DNA of 64,000 nucleotides from Planctomycetota bacterium (GTDB lineage: Bacteria > Planctomycetota > B15-G4). Each line of letters begins with the position of its first letter. The stretch's first letter is position 1. The stretch is taken from positions 58,828 through 122,827 of the forward strand of contig JBBQUR010000015.1 in NCBI GenBank assembly GCA_038212275.1. Reading direction: 5' to 3'. Below the pieces are notes generated by a model, which was not told the origin of the DNA, made no database searches, and was given only the letters and a program-made list of their open reading frames with translations. Positions 26,786 through 64,000 of this stretch are shown piece after piece. The position numbers and the translations under genes are program-made.

Positions 26786-27235
26786 GGAGGGCGTAGCTCA
26801 CAGAAGCGCCCTCCACCCTACCGCAGCGCCCGCACCGTGTCCTCCCTCCGGCGGTGAACGCCGCCCCGCTCGCGACATGGCGCCACCGCTCCCCGCTCCG
26901 CTTCGCGCGCGCCCGGCTCCAGGCGCCGTCATCCCGGCCAGGTTGGCCCGGCTTGTCGCCCGGCGCACAGAATCGCTCCGCTCACGTCTCCGGCGATACG
27001 CTGAGCAACTCCCCGCTCTCCTCTCTTCACACCCCACCACTCATATCCCTGTGGCGGCCGCGCCGGGTGCCGCGCCGGGTGCCGCGCCGGGTGCCGCGCC
27101 GGTGCGTCGGCCGGCAGCCCCAGCGAGGTCAGGATCGCCGTCACCACCGCGGCCTGCGTGAGCGCCGTGAGAGTCACGCGCCGGCCAGCGCAGCGCTCGC
27201 CGTGCAGCACGTCCAGCGCAGCACGTCCAGTGCAG
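26786..27235 (-). mobile_element. IS91-family transposase C-terminal remnant plus type A end
   Basis: LDVLH.ERCAGRR..L..LT..AVV.AIL.SLGLP...ARPP followed by the conserved end hairpin at 26786-26814. Confidence 0.8.
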
Positions 27236-27530
27236 CACTCGATAACCCGATCCGACGCGAGCCGAGAATATGCGTCGCACCGGATGGACTTGCTTGAAGC
27301 GCAGGCTGGGATGAAACGGATCCTGCCTGAACAGTCGATCGCGGCCTGAGCCTGACCCCGGACGGCGGGAGGCAGACTGTCGAGCGCCTTGCGAGAGCAA
27401 AGCGTGGTCCGTGATCTCACGGCTTGTCGGGATCGAGCTCTTCGGTCTTGCCGTCGCGGAACTCGGCGAGCGCCTCATCGGCGAGAAGCTCGAGCGCCGG
27501 CGACGTCTCTGCCAGCCTGCGCTGCGCTCG
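27230..27530 (-). pseudogene. Degraded RelE/ParE-like toxin and antitoxin pair
   Basis: Frameshifted MRSRTT..RKA...LFRQDPFHPSLRFKQVH..SARVGSGYR; upstream LADEALAEFRDGKTEELDPDK antitoxin tail. Confidence 0.65.
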
Positions 27531-27649
27531 CCGCTCGGATCACCGCGCGGCTGGGGCTCCGGCACTTGTCATGCCGCCCGCCTCGAGCCGACATGCGTGT
27601 GCGAGCCGGACTCCCTTGGTAACGCCCTCGTGGATGTCGAGCGTCTCGA

Positions 27650-27875
27650 TGCGAAGATGGGGGCAACTGCGGGGCATGGTCAGCCGCGGAGAGCTGGTCC
27701 GGGCAGCGCAGGCCTGTCGCATCGACGCCGTGATGAGGCCGTACATCGAGGCCGTCATCGCTTGACGAGGCCGGTGACGAACTTCGCGGCCTCCGTCCGG
27801 GCGAGGCTGCTCGAGGCGACCAACAAGCGCAGGGGTGACTTCCAGTTCACGCTCCAGCGCTACGCCGCCGAGCGT
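27650..27875 (+). pseudogene. AbiEi/AbiEii-like type IV TA junction fragment
   Basis: ...RIDAVMRPYIEAVIA* overlaps TTG of MTRPVTNFAASVRARLL..DFQFTLQRYAAER, then truncated. Confidence 0.65.
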
Positions 27876-28629
27876 GAAGCCGTCGGCGCGCACGCGCTGA
27901 GCGCTGCCGGGGCCGGCGGGCGGAACGCCGTACCACCGCGTCGCGTTCCACACGCCCCAGCCGCCGACACTGAACTTCCAGGCCACGTGGCGCTTGTTGG
28001 CGAGGTGGCGTCCCGTGTTCCGGAAGAGGAACTGGAACGTGTCCGTGCCATCCATCAATGTCACGAAGTTCGCGGCGTGGCGATCGAAGGAGGAAGGCAC
28101 CGTGACGTTGTTCGTGTCGACGCCGAGATCGAGGTCGTCCCCGCTCGGCCAGAGTCTCGCATTGATGCTGAAGGTGTCCATGTCGCCTCGCGAAGAAGGG
28201 CTCGGGCAAGCGGGCCGCATCCTGGTCGCGCTTGCGCGTTCGTGTGGGGATTCCTCGCGACCTCGTGCCGTGCGATTCGCTCGTCCGTTGGAGAGCGCGT
28301 CACCCGCGACACATCCATCGATGGATCACTCGACTTGCGAACTGCGCCTGCGAGTCCACGCACAAGTCAGGATGCAGACTCGGCCTTGAGTTCCGGCCGG
28401 TGGCGCGCACGTCACATGCGTCGCCCGCCACAGCTCTCGGACCATGGTGTCGTGCCGCTGATCGAGTTGCTGGCGCCGAAGCCGAACGGACCGGCCGGAT
28501 CCTGCTGCCAGCACTGCACGCCTCCCGGCCATGAGCTGGGCAGTTCGATGAGGCCGGCGGGCCCGATCGGAATGTTCGCGACGACGAACGCGGCCGCCGG
28601 CACCAGCGCGTGTCTTGCGACTTCCCCGA

Positions 28630-29115
28630 TCAGCCATTCATCGGGATGTCGCCGGGCGCGTGCAGGCGGTCGGCGAGATAGGCGTCAGCGTCGATGCCCG
28701 CCGCGCGCGTCGCCCGCACGAATGCGTCGCGCTCATGCACCATGACGTCGATATCCCAGATGCAGAACGACTCGCGCTCATTCGGGCCACGAAACCGCGC
28801 GACGACAGGCGGCGAAACGAACAGGCGGACAGGAAGCTCGTTGCCGTTGTCCCACCATCCAAAGACCAGATAATCACCCACCTGCGCCTGGTGCATGATG
28901 ATGAAGCCCAGCCCGGGGCGCAGCGAATCCGTGGCTGGCTGCGGGAGCGCGCCGCAGACCAGGTCCTCCCATCCCGCGAAGCGATGCATGTTCAAGGCGC
29001 CATCGCCCTGGACGATCGCATAGAGCTTCAACCGGTAACCCGCGAGCTCGACGATCCCGATGCAATTGATCGCACGCGGTCGCCAATGATCGCTGCGGAA
29101 CTCGGCGATGGTCAT
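28630..29115 (-). CDS. Conserved hypothetical protein
   Basis: Protein-like composition (YRLKLYAI...YLVFGWWDNGNEL...CIWDIDVMVHERDA). Confidence 0.7.
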   Translation of the reverse strand: MTIAEFRSDHWRPRAINCIGIVELAGYRLKLYAIVQGDGALNMHRFAGWEDLVCGALPQPATDSLRPGLGFIIMHQAQVGDYLVFGWWDNGNELPVRLFVSPPVVARFRGPNERESFCIWDIDVMVHERDAFVRATRAAGIDADAYLADRLHAPGDIPMNG

Positions 29116-29149
29116 GTGCAGGTCCAGTGCCCGGGTGTCTCTCGACGAC

Positions 29150-29260
29150 AGCGGGGAAAATGTAAGACAAGCGCCCCCCACCCTACCCCGGCGCCCGCGC
29201 TGAACGCTTCCCGGACCGCGAGCCTCGCGACGGAATCGGCGCGGGCGTGCATGCTGCCGT
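29150..29260 (-). mobile_element. Type A end remnant
   Basis: caagcgccccccaccctaccccggcgcccgc at 29168. Confidence 0.65.
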
Positions 29261-29541
29261 CCGCTCGCGGGTCCACGAAGTCGTATCACGGCCGACTGTC
29301 GCCTTCGGCTCCCACGCGCCACGGAGGACCCTACTTGCCGAGCGTGGTCACCATGCCCTGGCCGGAGAGTTCAGGCACTCTGTCCCACACCCCCGGTGCC
29401 GAAAGTTTCGGCCGTGTTTCGCGAAGCCGTATCCCCGCACCGCACGCGCACCGCCCCGGTCGCCGGCGCGACGAGATCCGCTTCGAGCGATGTGTGCGCT
29501 GCGCAGCAGGCGCCACGATCGTGCGGCCGCCGCCGGAGCTC

Positions 29542-31095
<1,554 letters not shown>

Positions 31096-31229
31096 GGCGT
31101 TCAAGAAAGAGGATGCAGCCCGGCGAGCGATCAGGCGATGTTTCTCGGGACGCCCATCGGGTGTGCCGCTCCATCCCTGACTCGCGATGCCCGCTTCAGC
31201 TTGCCGAGCGCACTCCCGCGCGCTGTAAC

Positions 31230-31430
31230 AACGCCGCGCGGGGGGCGCACCGGCGGGCACGGGCGAGGCCCGGCCTGGCCGAAGCGGCCCGGCCTCGCCC
31301 GAGCCGCGCCTGCTCTGCTTGCTTCTCTTCATCACTGTCTCCTTCCCGGGATCCGCCCGGGCTCAGGAGGCGGTGCTCTGCTCCATGCTCTGCACTTAGA
31401 AAAGCGAAGGTGTTTCCTTACGCCCTACAA
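31230..31430 (+). mobile_element. Type B IS91-like end remnant
   Basis: Near-identical inverted copy at about 56185-56345; ends gaaaagcgaaggtgtttccttacgccc. Confidence 0.7.
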
Positions 31431-31481
31431 CCTCGATCAGGTGGCTCAGCATGTCCGAAGCATACGGAGGCCCCGCCCTGC

Positions 31482-32918: not shown

Positions 32919-33087
32919 CGTTCCCCGCGGTGGCGCGACCGGAGTAACCTAACATCAGGCTCGACCCGAGTACGCCATCCGCCACGGTGCACGCCGCCTG
33001 CGACGCGCGGGCCGGGCGTGCGCCTGCAGCTGGCCGCGGCGCACGGCGGCCGCGCTAGACTCGGGGCCCGCGCCCTCGGAGTTCGCG

Positions 33088-41092: not shown

Positions 41093-41352
41093 TGCGTGCG
41101 CGATGCGTGCGGCGCATCGACTCCCAGGATCTCCCCCGGCGCCACGCGGCGGGACCCGCGACGCGTGACTTCGTTACGCATGGCGACTTGCCGCAACAGG
41201 AACTGGAGTCTCCGTAAACCTGCTCGCGCTGCGCATCGTCGTCGTCGCGATCATCCTGGCGCTCAAGGTGGCCGGGCTTCCTGTTCAATCTGCTCTTCGT
41301 GCTGGTCGTGCTGGGCGGCCAGTACTGGCTGCTTGCCCCGCACGTCGGGTTT

Positions 41353-41740
41353 GGCGTAGGTCATCCAAGCGCCCCCTCCCTGCCGCAGCGCCCGCGCCGT
41401 GCCCTCCCTTCGGCCATGAATGCCGCCCCGCCCGCGACACTTTGACCTTGCCCCGTTTCAGTGGACTCGGGGTTAAGCACAGTGCATGAAACTGCACGTC
41501 GAGATTGAGCGCCCCGCCGAAGCGCTGCACGAACACCACCGCGCCCGAGCGGCCGTCCGCCACGCCCTGCCGCCACGCGCGGCGGTGCTGGTCCGCGGAG
41601 AGATCGCGGCGCACGAAGGCCGGCAGCCCGGCTCGGCTCTCGCCTTGCTCCACGCGCTGCAGGAACGTCGCGAGGTGCCGCGCGACCACCTGATACAGCA
41701 ACGTGGTCTCCGGCTGGCGACGCCGGTAGCCAGCGGCTGC
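41353..41740 (-). mobile_element. Internally deleted IS91-family element plus type A end
   Basis: YRRRQPETTLLYQVV..LPAFVRR joined to GAVVFVQRFGGALNLDVQFHAL, joined to the end repeat. Confidence 0.85.
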
Positions 41741-41893
41741 GGATCCATGGCTGGGCACCGCGGCCGGAGTCGAGTCTCTGGCCCGTGCCGCGGCCACTGC
41801 GCTGACGGTCTCGGTGGCACGCGCGGACATCCCCGACCACACGACGAAGCGCAGCCATGTCCATCACCTCGGAGACCCGTGCTCGTGCCGCCG

Positions 41894-43315
41894 TCAGTTG
41901 CCCTGGATGCGCAGGCCGTTCGTGAGGGAGACGCCCTTCACGGCGCCTGCATCGATGAAGCCGGCCTGGAGGTAGATGCTCACGCCCGAGAGGACCGGGT
42001 TGGTGACCAGCACGGGCAGGGCCAGCGAGCCGGCGCCCGGCGTGCCCGGCGTGCCACCGAGAGTGAGCGGGAGCTGCAGAGCCACGCCGCCTACCAGGAA
42101 CGTTCCGCCCTTGAAGGGCACTGACGTCGGCGACGGACCAGCAAAGAGAAAGCCGCTGGCGCCGCCCACGACCGAGGTGATCGAGAGCGTGTAGGTCTCG
42201 CCGATGTCCACGCAGCCGATCGCGCCGATCACCGGCACCGGGCTGCCGAAGCCGGCCAGTCCCGTGCCGTAGGGGATCTGGAAGCCGTCGCAGGCCGGGC
42301 CGTTGGCGTCGATCTCGATCATGGTCTCGACCGGGCTGTAACCATCGCCCTGGGGCAGGGCCATGCTGGTGGGGATGACGCCGCCGAGGCCGCCGCTGCC
42401 CGCGCTGAACGTGCGGAACTGATCCAGGCTCTGGTAGCGGGTGTAAATCACCGCCTTGCCGAGGCGCCCGGACCAGCAGCCGCCATTGATATCGTTCTCA
42501 TCCGGGTTGGCCCAGCCCGTGACCGTCATCGTCACGGGGTCGAACGAGGCCAGGTTGGCCGGCGCGAACGCGCCGCCGCTGGCCATGGTGACCAGCACTT
42601 TGCCGCCCGGCATGTGGTCGAGGCTCATGATCTCCTCGAAGTTCGCCACGTTGGAGCTGGGCGCGCAAGTGACCGGGCCGTCAACGCGCAGGCCGTCGGC
42701 CGAGAGCGGAATGCGGTAGAGGCTGCCGCCGAGCGGGCCGCAGTCGGTCAGCGCCCAAAAGGCGGAGCTGCTGCCGATGAGCGAGTTCGTCGGCGCGTGG
42801 TAGAGCAGGTGCTCGACCTCGATCTGGAAGGGAGTCACGCCGTCAGCCTGCTTGAGCGTGTGGATCACGTTGTTCGCGTCGAAGTACTCGACGGTCTTCG
42901 GACCCTGCGACGAGCTGGTGTGCAGGATGAAGAAGATGCGCCCGTCGCCGGTGGACGCCAGGGCCCGCACGGAGCCCGTGACGCCCTCGATGCCCGGCAG
43001 CGCCACCTTCGTGCCGTCGTGGGACACGATCCACAGTCGCCAGTTGAAGAAGCCGTCTGGCGCAAAGGAGCAGTTGGCCACAACGCCGCCGCGATGGCTG
43101 TCGAACGTCATCACGCCGGGCCCGGTGGCCCAGCCGAGAGGCATCGCCAGTACCGCCGTGTTGCCCGTCTCGGGGTTCACGCGGCAGAGGATCTGCTGGC
43201 CGAGCATGTTGACGGTCCGCACGAGGAACTCCCCCTCGGTGAAGGGTCCGGTCTGGGCCATGGCGGGGGCCGGAAGCAGGCTCGCGGCGAGCAGCAGGGC
43301 AAGGCAGGTCTTCAT
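41894..43315 (-). CDS. Secreted beta-propeller-like protein with lineage-type C-terminal domain
   Basis: Signal peptide MKTCLALLLAA; C-terminus YLQAGFID...SLTNGL. Confidence 0.75.
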   Translation of the reverse strand: MKTCLALLLAASLLPAPAMAQTGPFTEGEFLVRTVNMLGQQILCRVNPETGNTAVLAMPLGWATGPGVMTFDSHRGGVVANCSFAPDGFFNWRLWIVSHDGTKVALPGIEGVTGSVRALASTGDGRIFFILHTSSSQGPKTVEYFDANNVIHTLKQADGVTPFQIEVEHLLYHAPTNSLIGSSSAFWALTDCGPLGGSLYRIPLSADGLRVDGPVTCAPSSNVANFEEIMSLDHMPGGKVLVTMASGGAFAPANLASFDPVTMTVTGWANPDENDINGGCWSGRLGKAVIYTRYQSLDQFRTFSAGSGGLGGVIPTSMALPQGDGYSPVETMIEIDANGPACDGFQIPYGTGLAGFGSPVPVIGAIGCVDIGETYTLSITSVVGGASGFLFAGPSPTSVPFKGGTFLVGGVALQLPLTLGGTPGTPGAGSLALPVLVTNPVLSGVSIYLQAGFIDAGAVKGVSLTNGLRIQGN

Positions 43316-43450
43316 CGGGGTCGTTCCGTTCCGGGGTGAGGAAATGGTGGGTGCCGGACGATTGTGGCATTGCGCAGCGCGAGCGCGCCGAGCGACAGCC
43401 ACCGGATCGCCTGCCCGAAGAAGCCGCGAATCGCGCCAGGCGTTACAGCC

Positions 43451-43570
43451 GGAGCGCAGGTCATTCAAGCGCCCCCCCCACCCTGCCGCAGCGTCCTTGC
43501 CGTGTCCTCGCTTCTACCGTGATTGCCGCTCCGCCCGCGATGCGGCATCGCCGCTCCCCGCTGCCCTGCG
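43451..43570 (-). mobile_element. Type A end remnant
   Basis: gcgcaggtcattcaagcgcccccccc-accctgccgcagcg at 43454-43495. Confidence 0.7.
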
Positions 43571-43817
43571 TCACGCGGGATCTGCGCATCCGCGGCTGGC
43601 ACGAGCATGCGGAGAAATTCGGGGAGCTGGCGGGCTGGGGCGCGGACGCGCCGGCGATCCTCGAGTTGCAGCGCTCGCGGCCGGAGCTCGCGGTGCCGCT
43701 GGCTGTGTCCGGCGTGCGCGCGCCGCTGCCGTACTCGGGCGCCGAGGTGGTCTGGGCCGCGCGGCGCAGGTGCGCGCGCTCGGGACGCCGGCGGAGGCGT
43801 ACATCGTCAAGGCCTGA
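43570..43817 (+). pseudogene. Glycerol-3-phosphate dehydrogenase C-terminal fragment
   Basis: LRIRGW...WGADA...LPYSGAEVVWAAR. Confidence 0.5.
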
Positions 43818-43994
43818 TCGGCCGGCCGGCGCCCAACGCCCGGCCGCGCCACGTATCGCGCCAGCGGCTCGACACCGTCGCGGCAGGCGGGCAGCACGGC
43901 GACGACGGAGACGAAAGAAGCGAGGATGCGCGCGGCGTGCGACTGAGAGACTCTGCGGGATCGCTTCACGGGTCGCGACCAGCGCACATCGTCC

Positions 43995-45756: not shown

Positions 45757-46215
45757 GTGCGTAGGCATTTCAAGCGACCCCCGCCCTCCCGCAGCGCCCG
45801 CGCCGAGTCCTGCCTCCGGCCATGAATGCCTCCCCGTCCGCGACACGGCGTCACCGCTCCCCGCTCCACGGCGCCCGCGCCCGGCTCCAGGCGCAGACAT
45901 CCCGGCCCGGGTTGTCCGTTCTGCCGCCCCTCGCGCAGACCCGCTCCGCTCACGTCCCTTGCGATGCGCTGACCAAGTCCCTGCACGCTTGGCTTCTCAC
46001 CTCACCATGCAAATCCCGGTGGCGGCGGCGCAGGATGCCGCATCGGCACATGGGCCAGCAGCCCCAGCGAGGTCAGGATCGCGGTGACCACCGCGGGCTG
46101 CGTGAGCGCCGCCAGGATCACGCGCCGGCCGCCGCAGCCAGGGCAATGCAGCATGTCCAGCGCGAACACGCGCTTCTTCAGCTCGGCCCACGGGTAGCGC
46201 CGCGCGTGCGAGGCA
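45757..46215 (-). mobile_element. IS91-family C-terminal remnant plus type A end
   Basis: RYPWAELKKRVFALDMLHCPGCGGRR.ILAALT; end reads gcttgaaatgcctacgc on the minus strand. Confidence 0.85.
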
Positions 46216-46520
46216 GGGTGCCTTCAGCGACACGCAGAGCCCCGCGCGCTGGAATCCGCGCCCCATGAGCGCAGCACCCGGGCAGGCATCACTCTTCGGC
46301 GCCGAGCAAGAGCCGGACAGCGCTCAGGCAGGCGCCGACGGCGGACCCGGAACCTCGCGCCCCGCTCGCTCGTCGCTGCCCGGCCGCACCGCGCTCCCCG
46401 CGCTCCCCGCGCGGCCCGACGCGCGGCCCGCGCGCGCGCCGGCCGCGACCGACAGCGGCAAGACCTCGCCGAGGATGGAGCGGTCTCTGCGCGCCGGACG
46501 ATGTCGTCTCGTGGTCGGCC

Positions 46521-46943
46521 TTGCTCACGTCGGAGGGGGCATGTTCGGTGCTCGTCGAGCACTGGAACGAGGAGCGGAACAAGTGGGTCGGCACGGGCGA
46601 AGTGCGGCCGGCACTGACGGCCGCGCCATGCGAGGCGCTGCGCGACGCGATGCAGGCGAACAGCTTCACGCAACTGGTTTCCCTGCTCCCCGAGGGCGAC
46701 GGAGGCAAGGCCTGTCCAGCGGTCGTGTGCAGTGACCTCGACACGATGTCGCTGGAACTCATCGCCGGTGGCGCGTCGCATCGCGTCGAGGTCTGCGGCC
46801 CCGCGCTGGCCGCGCAGGATCCCGACAACCCGCACCGCGCGGACGTGCAGCGCTTCCTCGTCGTCGTGACGCAGCTGATGCGCTGCGTGGCCTCGCCCAC
46901 CGCCCACCAGACCTCGGCGGACGACGAGCCGCTGCTGCGCTGA
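46521..46943 (+). CDS. Hypothetical protein, probably 5'-truncated
   Basis: Protein-like ORF with no clear start. Confidence 0.4.
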   Translation: MLTSEGACSVLVEHWNEERNKWVGTGEVRPALTAAPCEALRDAMQANSFTQLVSLLPEGDGGKACPAVVCSDLDTMSLELIAGGASHRVEVCGPALAAQDPDNPHRADVQRFLVVVTQLMRCVASPTAHQTSADDEPLLR

Positions 46944-48949: not shown

Positions 48950-49494
48950 GGTGAACTCCGGGGAGGAACGACTCAGTTCTCAATCCGGAGCGCGCTGTCG
49001 GTGTCTCGCGGACAATCCGCGCCGACCGCGCGCTGCTGGAGCGGCCGTCCCAGGGCGCGATCGAGGTCGGCGCGGTGCGTGCGGCTCTGGGAACTGGCCG
49101 ATGCGCTGCTCGACCGGCACGACGAGATGAGCGACTTCGCGTCCAAGGCGCTGGCCGCCGTCGCGCGGCGGGCGCACCGGAGCACGAGCCGCCGCGTCGA
49201 CTGGGAACCGGCGCGCGACACGCTGCGACGGCTCACGGACGGGACCAACCTGTTCGAGTTCGACACGCTCGTCGAGGTGCTCGTGCTCACGGACGTGTCG
49301 CCGCGGCTCGCGGCCCCGTTGCTCAGCGGCGGCGGCGGCGACCTTCTGCTGGCTGCGGCCGGCTCCTCGGACCGCGTGACCCGCGAGCATGCCCGTGCCC
49401 GCGGAGGCGCCCTCGCGCTGAGCATCGCGCGCGGCATCGCGCACCGGGCCCCACCCCATGTCCGCTGTCACTGATCGGCCGCGCGACCGTTGCG

Positions 49495-49625
49495 GGGGCG
49501 TAGGTCATCCAAGCGCGTGGCGCAGGTGATTCGTGCCGGGGACGGAGCGCAGGCCCGGTGCCGGAGGAGACACGCGGCGAGCGCCGGGGCAGGGAGGGGG
49601 CGTTTGAAATACCTACGCCCCTCCC
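49495..49625. mobile_element. About 130-bp unit with two outward-facing type A ends
   Basis: ggggcgtaggtcatccaagcgc at the left; ggggcgtttgaaatacctacgcccc at the right. Confidence 0.7.
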
Positions 49626-50989: not shown

Positions 50990-51259
50990 GGCGAGGGCGC
51001 CCCGCGCGGATCGGCAACCCGCGACCAGCCTCTCCATCGGACGCAGAGCCTGCGCCAGTGAAGTCCGCCGGTGGCGGGGCGCGGCTCGTGCGGGCGGCGT
51101 GTGCCCGGCGGGCCCGCCCGCAGGCCCATGAATGGATCGGCGGTCAGCGACTGCGCATGAGCTCGGGCAAATGCTCGGGCCGGGGTGAGTCGGGCCCCTC
51201 ACGACTCGGACCTCACAATCCCCGTGTCGCGGTTCAGGTCACGAACGTGCGTCGCGAGC

Positions 51260-51465
51260 GGCGTAAGTCATCCAGGTGCCCCCCCACCCTGCCGCAGCGC
51301 GCGCAGTGCAGCACGTCCACCGTGAAGACGCGCTTCATCAGCTCGGCCCACGGGTCGCGGCGCGCGTGCGGGGCGGCGCAGCGTCCACCGCGACCATCCC
51401 GCCTCGCGCGCAACGGCCGCCCCGAGCGCGCCGACTTCCCCGCCCGCGGCACGATCGCCGCCCGG
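51260..51465 (-). mobile_element. IS91-family remnant plus degenerate type A end
   Basis: RDPWAELMKRVFTVDVLHCARCG; near-identical to 58347-58536. Confidence 0.8.
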
Positions 51466-51633
51466 AGCTCCAGCAGCTACGTGAGCGGCATCCGCTTCGG
51501 CCCCGGCGACGAACTGCTCGTCGGCCCCGCCGGCCGTGACGTCGAGTGGGCCGCACTGCGCGGCGTCTTCTTGCCGAGCCTCTGAGGCGCGCCGACCCGG
51601 CGGACGAGCCCGACACGACGACCAACTCCCCGG

Positions 51634-52830
51634 TCAGTGAACTTCCGGGGCGTCGCCGGTGATCCGGTGCACGAAGAACGTCTTGCGGAAGTGCTGCTCG
51701 TCGAACGGACGCGATCCACGCACCGAGTCGAAGAATGCGTCGATCATGCTCAGGTGCTCGGCGTACAACGAGAGCTGATCGCGCAGCAGGTCGGCGTCGG
51801 GCTGCGGGAAGCGCTCGGCCACCCGCAGGCGCAGGAAGCAGGCGCTCGTGTAGGCCTCGTGCTCGAACGGCAGCTTCGCGGAGACCTGCAGCATGTCGGC
51901 CGTGCTGCGCCCGACGAAGTACGCGAACGGCTCGTCGCGGCGCGTGTTCGCGAAGTGCAGCACGGGGATCGCGAGCTTGCTGTCGCGCAGCGTGAACGCC
52001 TCGTACAGGAACGGCCACTTGTCCGCGATCTCGTTCAGGTCGGTCTTGGACTCGAGTGTCGTCTCCATGGAGACGAAGGCGCGGGCCAGCCCCGGTTCGC
52101 GCAGGCTGCACCATCCGACCTGCGCGCCCCAGCTGTGGCCGACGAAGAACAGATCGTCGCTCGTGGTGAGTGAACGCGCGAAGGCGATCACCGCGCGCAG
52201 CGCCGCGTGGTCGTCGGTCACGCCTTCATGCAGCCCGTACGGCATGTCCGCCCGGGGCAGGTGGAAGTTCGCGGAGACGAAGCCCCAGCCGCGCGACGCG
52301 AAGTGCTCGGCCATCGCGACGTTTTCGTCCGAGAGGCCCTGCGAGCCGTGGTGGTAGACGATCATCGGCACGTCGTGCGGCCCGTCGGGACGTGCGCGAC
52401 GGCTCGTGGTCGGAAGGCTCTGCACGGCCTCGAGCACGTCCCGCGCGGTGTGCGGGGAGTCGTCGATCGGCTCGTGCGTCGCCACCTGCTCGGCGAGGTC
52501 GCAGGCGACGAAACTCTCGTCCATGCGCGCGAGCAACTCGGCGTAGACCTGGGCAAGCGGCTCGGGGACCTCGCGTTCGCGGAGCTCGCCATAGGTCAGC
52601 GGCTCGCCGTCCACGGGCCGCGCGAGCGGATACCAGACCTGCACGAAGCGTGGCGCGGGACCGTCGTAGCCGTACTGCGCGTAGCGACCGTCCGCGTCCT
52701 CGACGAGCGCCGTGAAGTAGCCGACGGGCTGCGGGCCTGGCGGGAGCGCGCGCGCGAAGGCGTCCTGCGCGCGGACCGCGGCCGCGAGGACGAGCGTGAG
52801 TGCGAGCAGTGCGGGGCGTATGTCTTGCAA
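51634..52830 (-). CDS. Secreted alpha/beta hydrolase
   Basis: VQVWYP, IVYHHG, GHSWG; TTG start lies inside the element end. Confidence 0.8.
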   Translation of the reverse strand: MQDIRPALLALTLVLAAAVRAQDAFARALPPGPQPVGYFTALVEDADGRYAQYGYDGPAPRFVQVWYPLARPVDGEPLTYGELREREVPEPLAQVYAELLARMDESFVACDLAEQVATHEPIDDSPHTARDVLEAVQSLPTTSRRARPDGPHDVPMIVYHHGSQGLSDENVAMAEHFASRGWGFVSANFHLPRADMPYGLHEGVTDDHAALRAVIAFARSLTTSDDLFFVGHSWGAQVGWCSLREPGLARAFVSMETTLESKTDLNEIADKWPFLYEAFTLRDSKLAIPVLHFANTRRDEPFAYFVGRSTADMLQVSAKLPFEHEAYTSACFLRLRVAERFPQPDADLLRDQLSLYAEHLSMIDAFFDSVRGSRPFDEQHFRKTFFVHRITGDAPEVH

Positions 52831-53210
52831 GCGCCCCCCACCCTACCGCGGCGCCCTCGGCGTGTCCTGCCTTCGGCCATGATGGCCGCTCCGCCCGCAC
52901 CACGGCATCGCCTGCGCGGCCGCCAGCTCCGGGGAGCGCTCCACCATGGCCGCCAGCGCCGAGTCATCATCGCCGGGCGAGAGGCCCCAGCGGCGAGGCA
53001 CGCCGAGCACTCGCACCTGGATCGCCTGCAGGACGTCGGCCATGTCGCCCGAGATCAGCCCCGCGCTCGGTGAAACTCCGGCGGCGCGGCGGTGGCTCCG
53101 CTCCCGGCCTGCGCTGCAAACACCTCGTCCAGCACCAGCGCGTGGACGTGCACGTTGAGATTCAGCGCCCCGCCGATGCGCTGCACGAACACCACTGCGC
53201 CCGAGCGATG
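52813..53210 (-). mobile_element. IS91-family remnant with HUH motif plus type A end
   Basis: GAVVFVQRIGGALNLNVHVHALVLD. Confidence 0.85.
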
Positions 53211-53325
53211 ACCGCCGCGCCGAGGCCGCGATGAAGCGACGCGCTTCGGACTGAAGCCGCCAGGGTATCCTCGGCATGCGCCGACCAGCGGCAGGGAAGA
53301 CTGGCACCGTGGTATCGTCGAGCCC

Positions 53326-53859
53326 ATGGCGATGCAGTTCGGAACGGTGCTCGACCGGATCACGAAGCACATCGAGCAGCAGGGCCAGCGCTGGTTGATG
53401 GCGGGCGGCCTTGCCATGCAGGCTCACGGGTCGTCCCGCACGACGCAGGACCTCGACCTGGTCGTGGACGCTTCGGCGCAGGCTGACTTGCTGGCCTTCA
53501 TGGAATCACTCGGCTACAGGACGCTGCATGCCTCCGCAGGGTTTTCGAACCACCTTCACGCGGACAGCGCGTTCGGCCGAGTCGACTTCATCTATGTCGA
53601 TCGAGAGACCGCGGATCAGATCTTTCCGGGAGCCGCGACTCTCGCATGGGAGGGGCGCAGCCTGCCCGTGACCTCGGCCGAGCATCTCATCGCCATGAAA
53701 GTGCACGCCATGAAGAACGATCCGTCCCGCACGTTCGGGGAGCTGGCCGACATCCAGCACCTGATGCGGCAGCCCGCCGTGGATCGGACGCGCGTGCGAC
53801 GTTACTTCGAGTTCGCCGGGCTGCTGGATCGCTTCGATGAACTGCTCAGACTCCTCTGA
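53326..53859 (+). CDS. Nucleotidyltransferase (MNT/AbiEii-like)
   Basis: AGGLAM.AHG..RTTQDLD, EHLIAMK..A, ADI. Confidence 0.82.
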   Translation: MAMQFGTVLDRITKHIEQQGQRWLMAGGLAMQAHGSSRTTQDLDLVVDASAQADLLAFMESLGYRTLHASAGFSNHLHADSAFGRVDFIYVDRETADQIFPGAATLAWEGRSLPVTSAEHLIAMKVHAMKNDPSRTFGELADIQHLMRQPAVDRTRVRRYFEFAGLLDRFDELLRLL

Positions 53860-54058: not shown

Positions 54059-54194
54059 CGCCGCGCGGCAGCCCGCGTCGCGGATGGCACTGGTGGTGGC
54101 GGCAGCGATCTCCTCCGCGCCTCGCACCTGCCGAACGCCCGACCACCCCGCCGGCGCGCGCGCTGGAAGTCGGAGCGGCTTGAGGAACTGTGCC

Positions 54195-54420
54195 TGGACT
54201 GCGCCGTCGCTGACGGCTTCACGCTGCATGCCGGCGTGTCCCTGGCCGGCGGCGATCGCGACTGCGTGGAACGCCTGTGCCGCTGCATGGCGCGTCCTGC
54301 GATTGCGAGCGAACGGCCGGCCGCCCCGCTACGCTCGCAGTGCAGCACGTCCAGCGCGACACGTCATCCTGTGGAGGCTGCGCTCCATTCTCGGGACAGA
54401 CACCCGGCGATGTCAGGACC
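54195..54420 (+). mobile_element. IS91-family transposase core remnant
   Basis: DGFTLHAGV....DR..VERLCRCMARPAIASER; 54363-54400 repeated at 58828-58867. Confidence 0.75.
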
Positions 54421-56184: not shown

Positions 56185-56530
56185 TTGTCGGGCGTGCGGG
56201 GACTCCTTCGCTTTTCCAAGTGCAGAGCATGGAGCAGAGCACCGCCTCCTGAGCCCGGGCAGATCCAGGGAAAGAGGCCGTGATGAAGAGCAGCAAGCAG
56301 AGCAGGCGCGACTCGGGCGAAGCCGGGCCGTTTCGGCCAGGCCGCGCCCTCGCCGCTGCTCTCCGTCGCATACGCCTCGTCGAGCACCAGCGCATGAAAG
56401 TGCACGTTGAGATTCAGCGCCCCGCCGATGCGCTGCACGAACACCACTGCGCCCGGCTCGCGGTCGAACGCCACCGCGAAGCGCAGCGCGAAGGGCTGCG
56501 TCAGCACCCACTGCCGCACCGGCACCGATG
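56185..56530 (-). mobile_element. IS91-family remnant plus type B end
   Basis: PVRQWVL..PFALR...QRIGGALNLNVHFHALVLD, then a repeat matching 31270-31430. Confidence 0.85.
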
Positions 56531-56809
56531 GAAGTACCCGGTTTCATCGTGAGCGTTGAGCAGGCACGACGTCGTCAACGGCTGCGTCCGGGGCCGGTCG
56601 CTCGACAGCAGCGAGCCGGTGCGCTGCGCTGGAGCTGAGCGCCGGAGCGCGGGCTCTCCTGTTCTTCGGGACGCTACACTCACGCGCATGCTCCAGCACG
56701 TGACGGCCTGCGCCTTCCTCCTGCTCGTCCTCGCGCTGCCCGCGTTCGCCTTCGTCGGCGCAATGCGCGGCCCGGAGAGCCGGCACCCGCCCCGAGTGAG
56801 CGGCGCGAG

Positions 56810-57973: not shown

Positions 57974-58011
57974 GCGCGCGCGTCAGCCGTCGATGTCGCT
58001 GGAACACACCG

Positions 58012-58270
58012 TCAGCGACTGCGCATGAGCTCGGGCAAATGCCCGGGCCGGGGCGAGTCGGGCCCCTCGCGAAACAGGTCGAGGTAGTCGGCCAGGGGGC
58101 CCATGCCCATCTGTGCCCGTCGCTCGTCGATGTGCTCGATGTCCTCGCAGGGCATCAGCACGCTGCCGAAGCGCTCGGAGCGTCCGATCTGCGAGCCGTA
58201 GCGCTGCCGGTAGCCCAGGTTCAGGCGGTAGCGATCGAAGAGCAGCGCGTAGGCCTGTGGCCGGAGACGC
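58012..58270 (-). pseudogene. DUF6624-like C-terminal fragment
   Basis: YALLFDR......QRYGSQ....EDIEHIDERRAQMGMAPLADY. Confidence 0.6.
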
Positions 58271-58330
58271 GCGAGACCGACGCCGGCGCGCAGGGATCGC
58301 GCGCCCCCAGTATGCCCCGCCGTCCTCTCA

Positions 58331-58600
58331 GGGGGCCCAGGTCATCCAAGCGCCCCCACCCTGTCGCTGCGCTCGCAGTGCAGCGCGTCCAGCGCGAAGA
58401 CGCGCTTCATCAGCTCGGCCCACGGGTCGCGGCGCGCGTGCGGGGCGGCGCAGTGGCCACCGCGACCATCCCGCCTCGCGCGCAACGGCCGCCCCGAGCG
58501 CGCCGACTTCCCCGCCCGCGGCACGATCGCCGCCCGCAGCGACGACGCCGGCGCCAGCAGGCCGTGATACGTCAGCAGATGCGCGCGCGGCGACGGCACC
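58331..58600 (-). mobile_element. IS91-family remnant plus type A end
   Basis: HLLTYHGLLAP.S.LRAAIVP...WAELMKRVFALDALHC. Confidence 0.85.
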
Positions 58601-58603
58601 GAG

Positions 58604-58828
58604 CCGAAATGCCTGCTTCGTGATCGCGACAGCATCTACGGTGAGTGCTTCCGCCACGAGATCCGCGCGATGGGACTGCGAGCGCCGCTCAGCGGTCATC
58701 GTTCGCCCTGGCAGACCCCCTTCGTCGAGCGCGTGATCGGTACGCTCCGCCGCGAGCTCACGGACCACGTCATCGTCACGGGCGAGCGACACTCGCTCTC
58801 CCTGCTCCGCGACTTCCAGCGCGAATTG
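58604..58828 (+). pseudogene. rve integrase-core (DDE) transposase fragment
   Basis: LLRDRDSIYG..F...SPWQTPFVERVIGTLRRELTDHVIV.GERH. Confidence 0.75.
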
Positions 58829-58925
58829 TCATGCTGTGGAGGCTGCGCTCCACTCCCGGGACAGACTGGTGGTCCGCTCCATGCTCCGCACCCGGAAAAG
58901 CGAAGCCGTTTCCTTGCGCCCTGCA
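58828..58925 (+). mobile_element. Type B end remnant
   Basis: ctccatgctccgcacccggaaaagcgaagccgtttccttgcgccc. Confidence 0.65.
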
Positions 58926-58971
58926 TTGTTGCAGTGCGCGGAGCGCATCGGCGCGCGCGGACTGAGAGCCG

Positions 58972-60153
58972 CTACGGGAGATTCCGCGGATCGAAGCCCG
59001 GGTTCGTCTCGAGCATCAATCCATCCGCGGCCGCCGCCTGGACGACGCTGTCCCACGGGACCAGCTTGAAGTTCTGCTTGCCGCCCTTGTTGGAGTTGTC
59101 CTGCGCGGCGAACACGCCGGCCGGATACAGCCCGCCGAGACTCGTCGCCAGCACGTCGATACCGTCCGTGCCTTTCACGCCATCGATCGCAGCGTCGGTG
59201 ATGCGGAAGCGCCCGAGCAGCTCGTACGGCGTCCCGTTGTCGTTCTCGTCGAAGCGCTCGATGACGGCAAACGTGCTGACCCTCTGCTCGCTTGCCAGCA
59301 GGTATCCGTGATCGGCATCGGCGCCATAGAAAATGCCCAGACCCTCGATGTCGTTGAGGTACAGGTTGCCGGCGGCGACGGCGATGCGATCGCCGGGCGT
59401 GGCCGGCGCCGCTGCGTGCGCGTCGTAGGCCCACAGGCCCTTGTCCTCCTCGGCGATGAACAGCGTCCCTCGCTGATCGTCGAGCGCCATGCCTTCGCAG
59501 ATCTTGCCCACATCGAAGTAGCGCACGAGCGTGCCGGTGATGGCCGTGCCGCCGTCGGTCAGCTCGTACTGCCTCACGCGGCCGTCGGACTTGTTGGTCA
59601 CGAACGCGTGGAAGGCGTCGTTCGACTGGTCGTACCAGAGGGCGAGGCCGTACGGATCCTTGAAGGCCTTGTCGGTCTCCTGACCGGGCAGCGAGACGAC
59701 GGTCGCGAGGCTCACGTCGTTCAGGTGCACGAGAGCGGGCTGCGCGCCCGTGTCGTCGAGCCTGAAGAAGCTCAGGCACTTGCTGCTGCGGTTGGTCGCG
59801 ACCACCAGGTCGATGGACTCACCACCCAGCGGGAAGCCGTAGCGCAGATCGACGTTGTTGGCCTTGAAACCCGTGGCTGCGGCGACCTGCTGACCCTGCA
59901 GGTCGTAGACGTACAGCCCTCCGTTCTTTCCCGAATTCTTCTTGTTGGTGCCGATGATCAGGCTCGCGGTCGGATCGACGGGATCCAGCCAGATGGCCAT
60001 GTCGTCGGCCGCGTCGCCGCCCGCCGGCACCGGCGTCGTTTCCGCCGTGGCCGCGACCGGGATCGCGGTCACCTTGCTCCCGCCGGCGAAGGTGACCGGT
60101 ACGGCCATGAGGCCGGCGGCGAGGCCGAGCAGGAGCGTGGAGCGTCGTGTCAT
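58972..60153 (-). CDS. Beta-propeller phytase
   Basis: DAADDMAIW, GGLYVYDLQG, NNVDLR, DIEGL, QNFKLVPW; signal peptide. Confidence 0.92.
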   Translation of the reverse strand: MTRRSTLLLGLAAGLMAVPVTFAGGSKVTAIPVAATAETTPVPAGGDAADDMAIWLDPVDPTASLIIGTNKKNSGKNGGLYVYDLQGQQVAAATGFKANNVDLRYGFPLGGESIDLVVATNRSSKCLSFFRLDDTGAQPALVHLNDVSLATVVSLPGQETDKAFKDPYGLALWYDQSNDAFHAFVTNKSDGRVRQYELTDGGTAITGTLVRYFDVGKICEGMALDDQRGTLFIAEEDKGLWAYDAHAAAPATPGDRIAVAAGNLYLNDIEGLGIFYGADADHGYLLASEQRVSTFAVIERFDENDNGTPYELLGRFRITDAAIDGVKGTDGIDVLATSLGGLYPAGVFAAQDNSNKGGKQNFKLVPWDSVVQAAAADGLMLETNPGFDPRNLP

Positions 60154-60473
60154 GGGATGTCCCTCGGAAGAAACTCGCGTGACGGGATGCCGGCGGATGC
60201 CAAGACCATAACGCACCGTTCTCTGCCGGTCTCGCGTGCGGGCCGCCTGCTTGTCCAGCGCGTAGACCCACTGCGTGAGCCCAGCGGACGGCTCGCTGAT
60301 GATCGCCGGCTTGTGGCCGTCGGGCCTGGCAGCGGGCATGCATCTCGCGCTGCAGTTCTGGATTCCGGACCCTGCGGGCGTACACCATTTTGCTGCCAGC
60401 ACGGGTGTGCTGCTCGGACTCTGAGGCCCGGAGCCTGAGGCTGGCGTGACGGGTCTGCGGGAGGCGCATCGAG

Positions 60474-60983
60474 ATGACGGTCACTATCCGCCGCGTCGAG
60501 CCGGACGACTTCGAGGTCGTGCGGCAGATCTACTCGGGGCCGCGCGCGGTGTGGGGCACGCTGCAGCTTCCATTCCCGCCGATCGAAGCGTGGCGCAAGC
60601 GCCTCGCCGAGTCGGCGAACGAGAACGTCGGGCTGCTGGCATGCACCGACGGCGACGCCGTAGGCCACATCAATCTGCACACCTTTCCTTCCACGTCGCG
60701 CCGCCGCCACGTCGGTCAGATCGCGATGGCGGTGCGCGACGGCTGGCAGGGAAAGGGCGTGGGCACCGCACTGCTGCAGGCCGCGCTCGACATCGCCGAC
60801 CGCTGGCTGAACCTGTCGCGGCTCGAGCTCGAGGTCTACGTGGACAACGAGTCCGCGTTGCGCCTCTATCGGAAGTGCGGATTCGAGCTCGAGGGCACCC
60901 TCCGCCGCTACGCCTTCCGTGACGGCGAGTTCGCGGACGTCCACGCCATGGCTCGGCTCCGGCCGCCAGCAGCTGGCTCCTGA
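60474..60983 (+). CDS. GNAT acetyltransferase (YhhY-like)
   Basis: GTLQLPFP, WQGKGVG, LEVYVDNE.A..LY. Confidence 0.9.
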   Translation: MTVTIRRVEPDDFEVVRQIYSGPRAVWGTLQLPFPPIEAWRKRLAESANENVGLLACTDGDAVGHINLHTFPSTSRRRHVGQIAMAVRDGWQGKGVGTALLQAALDIADRWLNLSRLELEVYVDNESALRLYRKCGFELEGTLRRYAFRDGEFADVHAMARLRPPAAGS

Positions 60984-61043
60984 GAGACAGACTTGTCACG
61001 AGCCGGTTGATGGCGACGATCGGCCGGCGCCCGGGCTCCGCGG

Positions 61044-61412
61044 TCAGCTTCCCCACCAGGGCCAGCGTGCGCCTGCGACGGCATTGCCCAGGAGCACGGC
61101 CGCGACGAGACCCACGACCACGTCCCTGCGTCCGGCCGCGACGCGCAGTCGCCACGCGAGCAGCGCGCTCCACGGCAAGGCCCACGCCAGGGTGTAGGCG
61201 AAGTAAAGATGCCAGTTGTCGATCATCGTCGCCTGTCGATGGCCCGTGATGGACTTGGCCGTCTCCTCGAACACCTGCTGCACCACGCTGCCACCGAGAA
61301 GCACCCACACCTGGAAGGGCAGGCCTATCAGCACATCGTCCATGCCGAAGGTCGTGGGCGTCGCGCCGGAGAGGAGCAGCGCATCCTGGACCAGGATGGC
61401 GGGCGCCGACAT
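61044..61412 (-). CDS. Small membrane protein
   Basis: Hydrophobic ORF. Confidence 0.45.
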   Translation of the reverse strand: MSAPAILVQDALLLSGATPTTFGMDDVLIGLPFQVWVLLGGSVVQQVFEETAKSITGHRQATMIDNWHLYFAYTLAWALPWSALLAWRLRVAAGRRDVVVGLVAAVLLGNAVAGARWPWWGS

Positions 61413-61525
61413 CCCTGCCCGGCCGTACTGAGCGGCGCGCGGCCGGCGGCTCGCGAGGCGCTCTGCGAGGCGACAACTTCCGGGCTTTCTCTTATCGTGA
61501 TCCGCTCCCCGTGGAGCCCGGCGTG

Positions 61526-62461
61526 ATGGACGAGTTCGAAGCGGCACGACTCATCGAGAAGGCAGGGCCTCACTTCCACAGCCGCTTCGGCGGCTTGTGG
61601 ACGGATCTCAGCAATGCCGTCGAGGTCGTGAGCGGCAAGCTCGAGTTGGGCATGATCACGCCGAAGGACGCCGACGATCTGCGGTTCTGGATCGAGAACG
61701 GCTATGTCGTGTTCGAGCAGGCGGTGCCGCACGAGTTGATCGACCGCGTGCTCGCCGATGTCGAACTCGCCTGGCAGGGGCGCTGGCCGTCCGTGAACGT
61801 GGAACACGAGGACGCCACCGGCATGCAGATCGCGCCGATGCGCGCCGACCTGCGCGGCAAGCGCACGAAGATTCTCGACCTCAATGCGGTCAGCAGTGCC
61901 ACGATCACGGCCTCCTATGCGGACCCGGTGCGCCGCTTCCTCGGGCTGCTCTTCGAGCGGCCGGCGCTGGCCTTCCAGACGCTGGTGTTCGAGCAGGGCA
62001 CGTCGATTCCGCTGCACCAGGACACGGCTTTCGTGGGCGTCCGCTCGCCGCTCGAGCTCGTGGCCTCATGGATCGCGATGCAGGACGTGCTGCCGAACAG
62101 CGGTGAGTTGCAGTACTACGTCGGCAGCCACCGCATCCAGGAGCTGCTCTTCGACGACAAGTACAAGCTCATGCCGATCGGCTTCCCGCAGCCGGAGCTC
62201 TACCTGCAGTCGCTGCACGACCGGGCGCGCGCGCTCGGGCTGCCGCTGGTCAAGTTCCAGCCGCGCAAGGGTGATGCACTGCTCTGGCACGCCGAGCTGA
62301 TCCACGGCGGCGCGGCCGAACGCGATCCGAAGACCACGCGTCGCAGCCTGATCTCGCACTACTGCCCGATCAACGTCGAGCCCGGCTACTTTGCCTACTG
62401 GAAACACAGCGGCGTGCAGTCCCACGACAAGGGCTGCTTTCACTGCTGGGCGCTGCGCTGA
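61526..62461 (+). CDS. Phytanoyl-CoA dioxygenase family (Fe/2OG)
   Basis: HQD, SWIAMQD, GSH, WHAELIHGG. Confidence 0.9.
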   Translation: MDEFEAARLIEKAGPHFHSRFGGLWTDLSNAVEVVSGKLELGMITPKDADDLRFWIENGYVVFEQAVPHELIDRVLADVELAWQGRWPSVNVEHEDATGMQIAPMRADLRGKRTKILDLNAVSSATITASYADPVRRFLGLLFERPALAFQTLVFEQGTSIPLHQDTAFVGVRSPLELVASWIAMQDVLPNSGELQYYVGSHRIQELLFDDKYKLMPIGFPQPELYLQSLHDRARALGLPLVKFQPRKGDALLWHAELIHGGAAERDPKTTRRSLISHYCPINVEPGYFAYWKHSGVQSHDKGCFHCWALR

Positions 62462-62706
62462 GCCTTCGCGCTCACGGCCGGAGCCGGCCACGCGCGAGAC
62501 GACCCACATCGGCGTTCCGTGCGAAGGCGAATTGTCATGCTCTGGAAGGTGCGCTGCATTGTCGGGATCCACACGCTCTCTATCGGCCTGCCATCATCTT
62601 CCGTGCAGCTCGGCGCTGTCAGTCGGCCATGATGGACCTGCCGACAGTGCCTTCGTGGCACACCTTGAACTAACACAACCCACAACTACAGCGGACAACG
62701 ACAAGG

Positions 62707-63549
62707 TCAGCGACGTTCCTTAGGTCCTTCATCGACGCTTCGCACATAGTTTACTCGAGAAGTGATTACGGAGCCGGCGGGAATTGTCTTAGGATAGAAG
62801 TCCGATTCGTTCCCATATTTATACTCCGCGTCACAAGTCTTCGTCGTAACCCTATTCACGACAAGCGGAACATGATCTATGTCAACTTCACTTCTCTGCC
62901 AGCGCCAGAACAGATTCATACCTTCAAAAACGCCATCAACCTCGCCGAGATCAATGCTTTGACCGCCCGCGACGCTCTCCGCCAACACGGTTCCCGATAT
63001 TGGCTTGTCCAGAACGTAGCGTTGCCATACGCGCGGCAATTCCGCTTTATTGATGCTACCGACAATATCCCAATCGCTCTCTCGGAGAAAAAACTTTCCC
63101 CATTTGCCATTGCGTGGTTCATCACCTGCATTAATAGCTTGGCAGAATGACAGAAATCCGGCTTCCTCCACTAAATACAGTCGCCCCCCCGCCATCACTT
63201 GGCACAGATTCAGTAATGGCTTGCCGGACAATGTTGAAATGGCCTCTCGGGGAAATGCCAGCCTTACTATATCGAGATCAATTGACCAAGATCCAATCGT
63301 GTCACCGATAGGAGCATGCTCATCCCCCTCTTTGATGACCACTCGCCCGTCACCTGTACCACGAAAAGTTGCCGATCCGTCAGCGGAGAGCGAAAGCGTT
63401 TCATTTACCCTTCCCCGGTTGCCGCGGAAATAAGACCCGACGACAGAAGGGCCATCGCCCTTGCCACTGCGATCCTGTTCCTGCACTCCCACGCTCGACG
63501 TCAGCAGGAAGGCAAGGCAGGAGAACATGATCGGAATGATCATTTTCAT
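62707..63549 (-). CDS. Exported hypothetical protein in a low-GC segment
   Basis: Signal peptide; 280-aa ORF with AT-richer codons. Confidence 0.75.
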   Translation of the reverse strand: MKMIIPIMFSCLAFLLTSSVGVQEQDRSGKGDGPSVVGSYFRGNRGRVNETLSLSADGSATFRGTGDGRVVIKEGDEHAPIGDTIGSWSIDLDIVRLAFPREAISTLSGKPLLNLCQVMAGGRLYLVEEAGFLSFCQAINAGDEPRNGKWGKFFLRESDWDIVGSINKAELPRVWQRYVLDKPISGTVLAESVAGGQSIDLGEVDGVFEGMNLFWRWQRSEVDIDHVPLVVNRVTTKTCDAEYKYGNESDFYPKTIPAGSVITSRVNYVRSVDEGPKERR

Positions 63550-63669
63550 GATTTACCTTAAGTGAGACACGGAACCACGAATGCCACTGGAATTTGCAAA
63601 CTCATCTGAGGGGCCCTCAAACGGAAGTCCTGATGAGGGATCGATTCCCCCACCGCTCAGGCCGTCTAA

Positions 63670-64000
63670 GTGCGTAAGGAAAAACAAGCGCCCCCCACCC
63701 TACCGCAGCGCCCGCGCCGTGTCCTGCCTTCGGACGTGAATGCCGCTCTGCCGGCTACACGGCGCCGCCACTCCCCGCTCCGCGGCGCGCGCGCCCGGAT
63801 CCAGGCGCCGACATCCCGGCGCGGCTGGCCCGTTCTGACGCCCGGCGCGCAGACCCGCCCCGATCACGTCCCCGGCGACGCGCTGACCAACTCCCTGCAC
63901 ACCTCTCTTCTCACCTCACCACTGAAATCCCGGAGGTGGCCGCGCCGGGTGCCGCACCGGCGCTTCCGTCGGCAGCCCCAGCGAGGTCAGGATCGCTGCC
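63670..64000 (-). mobile_element. IS91-family C-terminal remnant plus type A end (runs off window)
   Basis: AAILTSLGLP....ARPP followed by about 250 bp homologous to 26803-27140 and 45771-46080. Confidence 0.85.

Follow-up and report, generated by a model that had tools for sequence, protein, structure and literature searches.

A dense array of defective ISCR-type elements, most of them anchored at oriIS, in the genome of a Planctomycetota bacterium

A 64,000-nt stretch of the genome of an uncultured, high-GC Planctomycetota bacterium (hereafter the window) was found to carry 15 recurring ends, which are genuine oriIS termini of elements of the insertion sequence common region (ISCR) type, members of the IS91 family. 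The window is the last 64 kb of the 122.8-kb contig C15 (positions 58828-122827 of JBBQUR010000015.1); the assembly comprises 4.65 Mb in 40 contigs with 70% GC, and its other contigs are cited below as C2, C5, C16, C25 and C38. The surroundings of the array are accessory cell-envelope genes. The array is probably a pile-up of defective ISCR-type (IS91-family, HUH) rolling-circle insertion sequences (ISs) of two subfamilies, which form a truncation series anchored at oriIS. It is an unusually dense non-clinical example of a known gene-moving element. An earlier note, made from the sequence alone, had read the same DNA as an integron-like gene-capture array.

Two types of end were distinguished. 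Twelve type-1 sites, whose alignment gave the plus-strand consensus GGGGCGTAGGTCATCCAAGCGCCCCCCACCCTGCCGCAGCGCCCGC, could be aligned over about 45-100 nt, and their likeness broke off sharply on the low-coordinate side. Their outer ends lie at 763, 26788, 29153, 41352, 43451, 45757, 49494, 51259, 52813, 58332 and 63674, with an inverted one at 49622; the end at 49494 is partial, with about 24 nt left, and was detected in the alignment only. All 12 are where the earlier note had placed them, its coordinates being those of the motif CAAGCG about 15 nt inward of each outer end. A strict 30-nt pattern gave three matches, compared with none in 100 shuffles. A profile built from 11 of the 12 window copies was run over the 4.65-Mb genome and gave 19 sites at E<=1, of which 12 were on C15 and 11 within the window. 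The second end type that had been reported near 31400, 56200 and 58890 was also confirmed, at 31251-31430 and 58868-58925 in inverted orientation and at 56185-56365 in the orientation of type 1, which brings the window total to 12 type-1 and three type-2 ends. Eleven of the 12 type-1 ends are oriented alike, as had been claimed (two-sided binomial P = 0.006). The ends are also clustered: among the 20 ends scored genome-wide, which were used for the gene-start analysis as well, 12 fall in the 37 kb between 26.7 and 64 kb, compared with an expectation of 0.16. Three ends form a smaller cluster at C2:179.7-188.6 kb, and contig C38 has two further remnants. The final 141 nt of the window are identical to the end of C38, reversed, so the array carries on in C38.

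The ends were identified by their position relative to the transposase gene and by their terminal motif. The minus strand just inward of several ends codes for the C-terminal part of an IS91-family transposase, and the three longest window copies have their outer end about 250 nt past the transposase stop codon. Among 25 relatives that were full length with enough downstream DNA, the end motif GCGCTTG-N6-CCTACGCCC matched ends 162-367 nt past the stop in 19; this is a loosened motif, adopted after a simple regular expression had matched 5/22, and it may include chance matches (locus L020, +315). The ends of ISCR1 and ISCR2 were taken from plasmid records for comparison. The ISCR1 end, ...GGTGGTTTATACTTCCTATACCC, lies 232-235 nt past the stop, in agreement with the published length of 232 nt for its oriIS region (PMC6218425), and shares about 15 of 23 positions with the window end. 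The ISCR2 end, GGGCGTTTATTCTTCCTATAC, lies 238 nt past the stop and is close to the window copy at 49600. On the transposase strand the window consensus reads GCGCTTGGATGACCTACGCCCC, which fits the pattern seen in the relatives; one metagenome element has the end GCGCTTGGAAGTCCTATCCTC. The end comprises a terminal 6-bp hairpin and a second palindrome, and each base pair of the hairpin persists in 7-10 of the 11 copies, with covariation almost nil. The distance after the stop codon, the terminal motif and the transposase likeness together identify the ends as ISCR-type oriIS termini, and the resemblance that the earlier note had pointed to holds against both ISCR1 and ISCR2. The elements represent two new ISCR-like subfamilies from an uncultured high-GC lineage. 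At the opposite side, a candidate terIS boundary is suggested by two copies only, remnant D of the window and a copy on C16, which meet at C16:115127 and window position 41870.

No intact transposase was found in the window by profile search, the largest remnant being about 105 residues, which agrees with the earlier note. That note had also proposed a genome-wide look for an intact Y2 transposase, and this succeeded in part. The longest copy, at C5:267525-268658, encodes 378 residues without a stop and carries the HUH and tyrosine motifs, but it runs off the contig end. Its matches to Zn_Tnp_IS91 (PF14319, 58.2 bits) and Y2_Tnp (PF04986, 65.6 bits) are both above the cut-offs. It is 38.7% identical to the ISCR1 transposase over 95% of its length and 40-42% identical to that of ISCR2, and alignment showed that the zinc cysteines, the HUH histidines H193 and H195 (VHFH) and Y328 (RY.ARP) are invariant between the three. 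Four contig ends of the assembly fall inside copies of the element.

The remnants were mapped by transposase profile search (hmmsearch with relaxed filters). In total, the outer end is kept in 15 fragments and absent in three. Differing deleted pieces of the transposase, as previously described, adjoin seven of the 12 type-1 ends and one of the three type-2 ends. On the minus strand, remnant B (26788-27219) has the whole oriIS region and transposase residues about 441-489 (27073-27219), remnant F (45757-46214) has the oriIS region and residues 426-490, and remnant L (63674-64000) has the oriIS region and the C-terminus (residues 468-490) and runs off the contig end. Shorter pieces of oriIS are joined to inner parts of the gene in remnant I (51259-51471, minus strand), where a stub of about 32 nt is followed by a microhomology deletion and residues 398-451, in remnant J (52813-53221, minus), with about 100 nt of oriIS and residues 169-272, and in remnant K (58332-58609, minus), with residues 378-449 and the same deletion junction as I (93.5% identity). 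The MITE-like remnant D (41352-41870, minus; MITE, miniature inverted-repeat transposable element), of 519 nt, is the sole window copy with both ends; it consists of oriIS (41352-41440), of residues 155-195 and 5-60, and of DNA from the terIS side that reaches to 41870, a boundary it has in common with the copy at the C16 contig end. Type-1 oriIS stubs on the minus strand are A (763-838, about 76 nt, without a transposase piece), C (29153-29221, about 69 nt) and E (43451-43570, about 120 nt). The type-2 remnant T2b (56185-56540, minus) joins the end at 56185-56365 to residues 113-206, while T2a (31251-31430) and T2c (58812-58925) are inverted ends on the plus strand with outer ends at 31430 and 58925. 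Also on the plus strand are an inverted internal transposase fragment without an end (54194-54316, residues 299-339) and an inner type-2 oriIS piece whose terminus is absent (54347-54401), a repeat with a second copy at 62518-62572.

Two opposed ends, G (49494-49517) and the inverted H (49553-49622), form a double-ended mini-element of about 129 nt at 49494-49622, to which no strand was assigned. The outermost 10 nt are a perfect inverted repeat, and the ends stand inner side to inner side; half H is 90% identical to the end at C2:182531. This mini-element might have arisen from strand switching in rolling-circle replication. Beside D, the remnant of a gene for a membrane protein of ~50 amino acids (aa) at 41213-41345 has lost its 3' end to the oriIS of D, and its intact paralogue is at C25:27996-28148; at locus L004, from another assembly, a small membrane-protein open reading frame (ORF) lies between two oriIS copies. 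A 109-aa ORF at 58012-58341 on the minus strand abuts the outer end of K; its DUF6624 match (23.8 bits) falls short of the cut-off, and it probably represents part of a gene.

Host DNA was captured at remnant F. Directly past the break of F and joined to its terIS side, the 269 nt at 46227-46495 (plus strand) are 88% identical to C16:115063-114786. The donor is the upstream region and first ~77 codons of mutS, a gene with all five MutS domains, and the ATG of the mutS' fragment is at 46265. The layout is divergent in both places: on C16, too, an ISCR copy has its terIS side turned towards the start of mutS. Remnant D sets the element boundary at C16:115127, which places the mutS piece beyond the element. 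On the transposase strand of the donor, CTTG occurs within 1 nt of the far breakpoint, for which the chance is about 3% (a rough estimate). Judged from these sequence comparisons, the fragment is direct evidence of read-through capture of flanking host DNA. Replication would have run from oriIS through the transposase gene and beyond terIS and stopped about 340 nt into the flank; the product would have been inserted at the window site, after which terIS and the codons for residues 1-425 would have been deleted. According to the accounts available for IS91-like elements, one-ended transposition requires only oriIS and CTTG or GTTC, and takes variable lengths of adjoining DNA along (PMC5737581, PMC13181058). 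The mobilisation of flanking DNA by ISCR rolling-circle transposition, which the earlier note had invoked, thus occurred at least once here. The fragment now begins a chimeric ORF at 46265-46735, in which ~77 mutS codons are followed in frame by unrelated sequence without a Pfam match.

Dead remnants were also duplicated, I and K being copies of one derivative. Both lack terIS and have a single internal junction in common, where the end meets the CxxC-coding region across an 11-nt microhomology (GCAGCGC.CGC). Sites at which I differs from K, like those that separate a pair of copies on C2, are distributed evenly across codon positions. The DNA fragments that adjoin I and K are weaker evidence than the mutS' fragment: neither has CAAG or GAAC at its far breakpoint, and the one beside I is similar to a section of a 152-aa gene at another place on C15.

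These data are consistent with the following course of events. The repeated ends are oriIS, the start point of rolling-circle transposition, and oriIS would be present in every product, whether full-length, prematurely terminated or read-through; this would account for the anchoring of 15 of the 18 fragments at the outer end and for their differing only in the length of transposase they retain. Later microhomology deletions would have cut many copies down to 30-120 nt, and certain dead derivatives were copied anew. At least one copy passed its terIS and brought the mutS start to the window. The enzyme would have had to act in trans from full-length copies that are now broken by the assembly (at the ends of C5 and C16), and whole genes between the ends may have been brought in by the same route.

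Several results weigh against this pile-up explanation. Clear capture is limited to a single case, which involves part of a gene and no whole gene. The C5 transposase is incomplete in the assembly and its activity is unproven. Outside the 12 type-1 ends the flanks have no common tetranucleotide, and no CTTG or GTTC stands consistently beside oriIS. I and K share a further 62-nt stretch outside the oriIS end, which seems to fit segmental duplication better than transposition from that end. In the relative G002, two copies in the same orientation lie 4.3 kb from each other and have 443 nt in common at 99.8% identity; the truncated one lacks oriIS, which shows that fragments are not always end-anchored. 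The likeness between copies is only 75-89%, which makes most events old or places their origin in diverged lineages. The DNA at the break of K is a piece of another insertion sequence, as would be found in a plain IS graveyard: an unrelated DDE (rve_3) transposase fragment (58593-58830, plus strand), 82% identical to C25:13017-12783, abuts K. Base composition is ordinary in eight of the 11 inter-end segments; the remaining three (27220-29152, 43571-45756 and 58926-63673) are in the lowest ~tenth of the genome GC distribution. The GC content at third codon positions (GC3) of the cargo is mostly 0.88-0.94, which is native-like, and the relation between cargo genes of the window, C2 and C38 clusters is no closer than distant family membership.

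Part of this evidence would also suit such a graveyard, in which several ISCR lineages were inserted independently into a tolerant accessory region and then eroded by random deletion; in this reading the outermost part survives as an outward promoter, or part of one, for the downstream gene and the neighbouring genes never moved. The low likeness of the copies, which points to several lineages, and the native-like composition of most cargo are in line with it. The 232-nt oriIS region of ISCR1 is described as carrying outward promoters, which drive co-oriented genes 0-1211 nt downstream (PMC6218425), and in the window gene starts overlap the ends at 26788, 29153 and 52813 or lie within 40 nt of them. 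The transposase-sense strand is the G-rich strand at seven of 10 loci, with two opposite and one neutral, a small sample; since orientation follows the G-rich strand, the direction of replication may explain the shared orientation. However, no sigma-70-like promoter was predicted in the ends between 41000 and 59500 (one site was found in all, compared with 0.8 expected, by a scan that may not suit this phylum), and six of the 15 window ends face no gene start. Random deletion does not predict that the same end is kept in 15 of 18 fragments, the mutS' fragment is flanking DNA that did move, and I and K were copied from a single dead derivative. A plain graveyard is therefore considered unlikely, and the pile-up of rolling-circle products is preferred.

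The integron-like array of the earlier note would be a selected capture and shuffling platform, with solo oriIS ends maintained while a transposase acting in trans moves or exchanges single-gene units. It draws on one-gene intervals between an inner break and the next outer end at 29222-31250, 41871-43450, 43571-45756 and 51577-52812, on five stubs of 69-120 nt, near the 82 nt given as sufficient for IS91 oriIS function (PMC13181058), and on the retained terminal hairpin. Read-through capture has happened in the window, and a "sandwich" capture by two sequential oriIS copies has been proposed for ISCR28 (PMC12772301). The gene at 43995-45341, with a low GC3 of 0.79 and one weak partial match among 15 other genomes of the family, is in keeping with it as well. 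However, the ends that had been described as kept while the coding parts decay are kept in terms of presence, but not in terms of substitution. Among the five long copies, identity was 0.77 and 0.76 in the two 25-column bins of the terminal 50 nt and 0.64-0.90 over the next 250 columns; the ends are thus no better conserved than the neighbouring internal DNA, a result that the earlier note had itself counted against its reading. It had also reported a co-oriented gene start after most ends. A manual count gave such a start at nine of the 15 window ends, but over the genome-wide set a gene start faced the outer end at 10/20 by script and at 12/20 after two manual corrections of gene calls (one-sided P = 0.25), which is not above chance.

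The remaining tests also went against a selected platform. Most cargo is native-like in composition, and no unit recurs in the rest of the genome or in the relatives compared. A search for the 271-nt oriIS region in 41 other genomes of the order gave no hit at E<=1e-5, and exact-pattern scans for the end in genome and metagenome contig collections were likewise negative. The 26-46 kb and 46-64 kb parts of the window showed no synteny with 15-20 relatives of other genera, only scattered gene-family matches. The array includes fragments without an end and a piece of another insertion sequence. The genome has six matches to the tyrosine recombinase family PF00589 and contig C15 has none, so "integron-like" is an analogy only, and the unit boundaries are oriIS ends joined to transposase remnants and not attC sites. 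An Rfam scan of the window gave no family at threshold (whether the library holds an attC model was not checked). With end conservation and gene starts both failing and no IntI on the contig, a selected, integron-like cassette system has no support from the tests run and is judged quite improbable. Scarcely less doubtful is a form of it in which solo oriIS modules (~70-120 nt) would be reusable origins fired in trans, with units added by sandwich capture and expressed from the preceding end; if that were true, gene-shuffling platforms of this kind would be common in non-clinical settings, among them Planctomycetota, Myxococcota, Acidobacteriota and other groups.

Individual cargo genes were also compared. 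The alpha/beta-hydrolase gene at 51634-52830 is 80% identical in DNA and 73% in protein to G008:C1:167515-168636, from another genus. The G008 locus has unrelated neighbours (under 40% identity) and no ISCR remnants nearby, which speaks against carriage of this gene by a platform; it is either an orthologue conserved within variable surroundings or the product of a transfer. By protein search, the gene at 41894-43315 is a member of an expanded paralogue family, and its 3' end (41907-42170) encodes a C-terminal domain common to many paralogues in this genome and in relatives. Between J and the inverted transposase fragment, 53326-53859 encodes a 177-aa nucleotidyltransferase with AbiEii-like and NTP_transf_5 matches and a GC3 of 0.83. 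The clusters at C2:176-192 kb and on C38 have FG-GAP proteins, PMT_2 and GT4 glycosyltransferases, a sulfatase and PhyH as in the window, and a DDE transposase fragment. Paralogy at the level of units was considered for the window, C2 and C38 clusters and rejected, as their cargo genes are not copies of each other. Tandem arrays occur in minus-strand coding regions at 12254-12399 (9-nt units, 11 overlapping copies) and 26352-26441 (18-nt units, four copies).

We also considered an assembly artefact, in which repeats were joined chimerically in this metagenome-assembled genome. The contig ends in a repeat and overlaps C38 by 141 nt, most repeats are also break points in an independent assembly of the probable source run, and source-run depth is 39-40 up to 49578 and 23-33 from 49550 onwards. 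However, an identity of 75-89% is too low to mislead a long-k assembler. The source-run contigs, which come from the same sample and are not independent data, match the inter-repeat segments with no differences and span the ends of D, E, F and J; a single contig of 4611 nt reaches across both E and F, and the oriIS of D is covered by another. An artefact is thus highly improbable. The depth step at about 49550 may reflect strain or population heterogeneity or an accessory segment.

The array was finally compared with known systems. In the available account, ISCR elements are known almost only from Proteobacterial antibiotic-resistance regions, and their transposition has never been shown directly (PMC6218425). 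Relatives of the transposase are numerous: 6925 of 8000 scored proteins reached E<=1e-20, in assemblies labelled Myxococcota, Acidobacteriota, Planctomycetota, Rokubacteria and others. Among 50 loci of at least 8 kb that surround relatives of the transposase in other species, 10 had extra copies or fragments within 10 kb, of which 11 of 14 were co-oriented with the main copy. Extra co-oriented oriIS copies were found at loci L004, L026 and L038, and short metagenome contigs carried tandem C-terminal fragments and duplicated oriIS ends. These extra copies in other phyla suggest that local co-oriented pile-ups are a general habit of the ISCR-type group. The window provides a natural, non-clinical case, and the donor locus of the capture, lying in the same genome, makes it a traceable example of the pick-up of host DNA.

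ISCR1 of complex class 1 integrons is similar in its transposase, which belongs to the same family at the identity given above, and in an oriIS region ~232-250 nt past the stop with a similar terminal motif. It is also flanked on the oriIS side by a variable region of co-oriented genes (PMC6218425), and its terIS side is lost and joined to foreign DNA, as in remnant F. In contrast, the window has no class 1 integron, 3' conserved segment (3'-CS) or resistance genes, and the host chromosome is environmental; its copies are many, all truncated and of two subfamilies, and no outward promoter was predicted in the ends between 41000 and 59500. Truncated oriIS-side copies of ISCR2 adjoin sul2, floR and tet(X). 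ISCR2 (ISVsa3) resembles the window elements in its transposase (40-42% identical) and in the end GGGCGTTTATTCTTCCTATAC, close to the copy at 49600, but is known from resistance islands on plasmids and integrative and conjugative elements of Proteobacteria, whereas the window has 15 ends among envelope and glycan genes. In the ISCR28 sandwich, a remnant with an extra oriIS stands upstream of a gene and a second oriIS downstream (PMC12772301); that is one sandwich around a resistance gene, whereas the window is a long series that is putatively mobile at most.

In IS91, IS801 and IS1294, as described, transposition likewise starts at oriIS and the far end is at CTTG or GTTC, which the mutS' capture fits; termination is reported to fail in 1-14% of events, which carries adjacent DNA along (PMC13181058, PMC5737581). 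The window elements, in contrast, are in the ISCR branch, with RY.ARP and a single tyrosine, and show no target tetranucleotide beside oriIS. Integron cassette arrays share co-oriented, often single-gene units and a recurring boundary element, but in the window there is no IntI on the contig, the boundaries are transposon origins, and the units hold one to eight genes on both strands. Helitrons are comparable in their HUH rolling-circle mechanism, their read-through capture of gene fragments and their mostly non-autonomous copies, as far as these have been described, but they are eukaryotic and use a different enzyme, a Rep/helicase. Set beside these systems, the array is a known kind of element, an extreme natural pile-up of ISCR copies.

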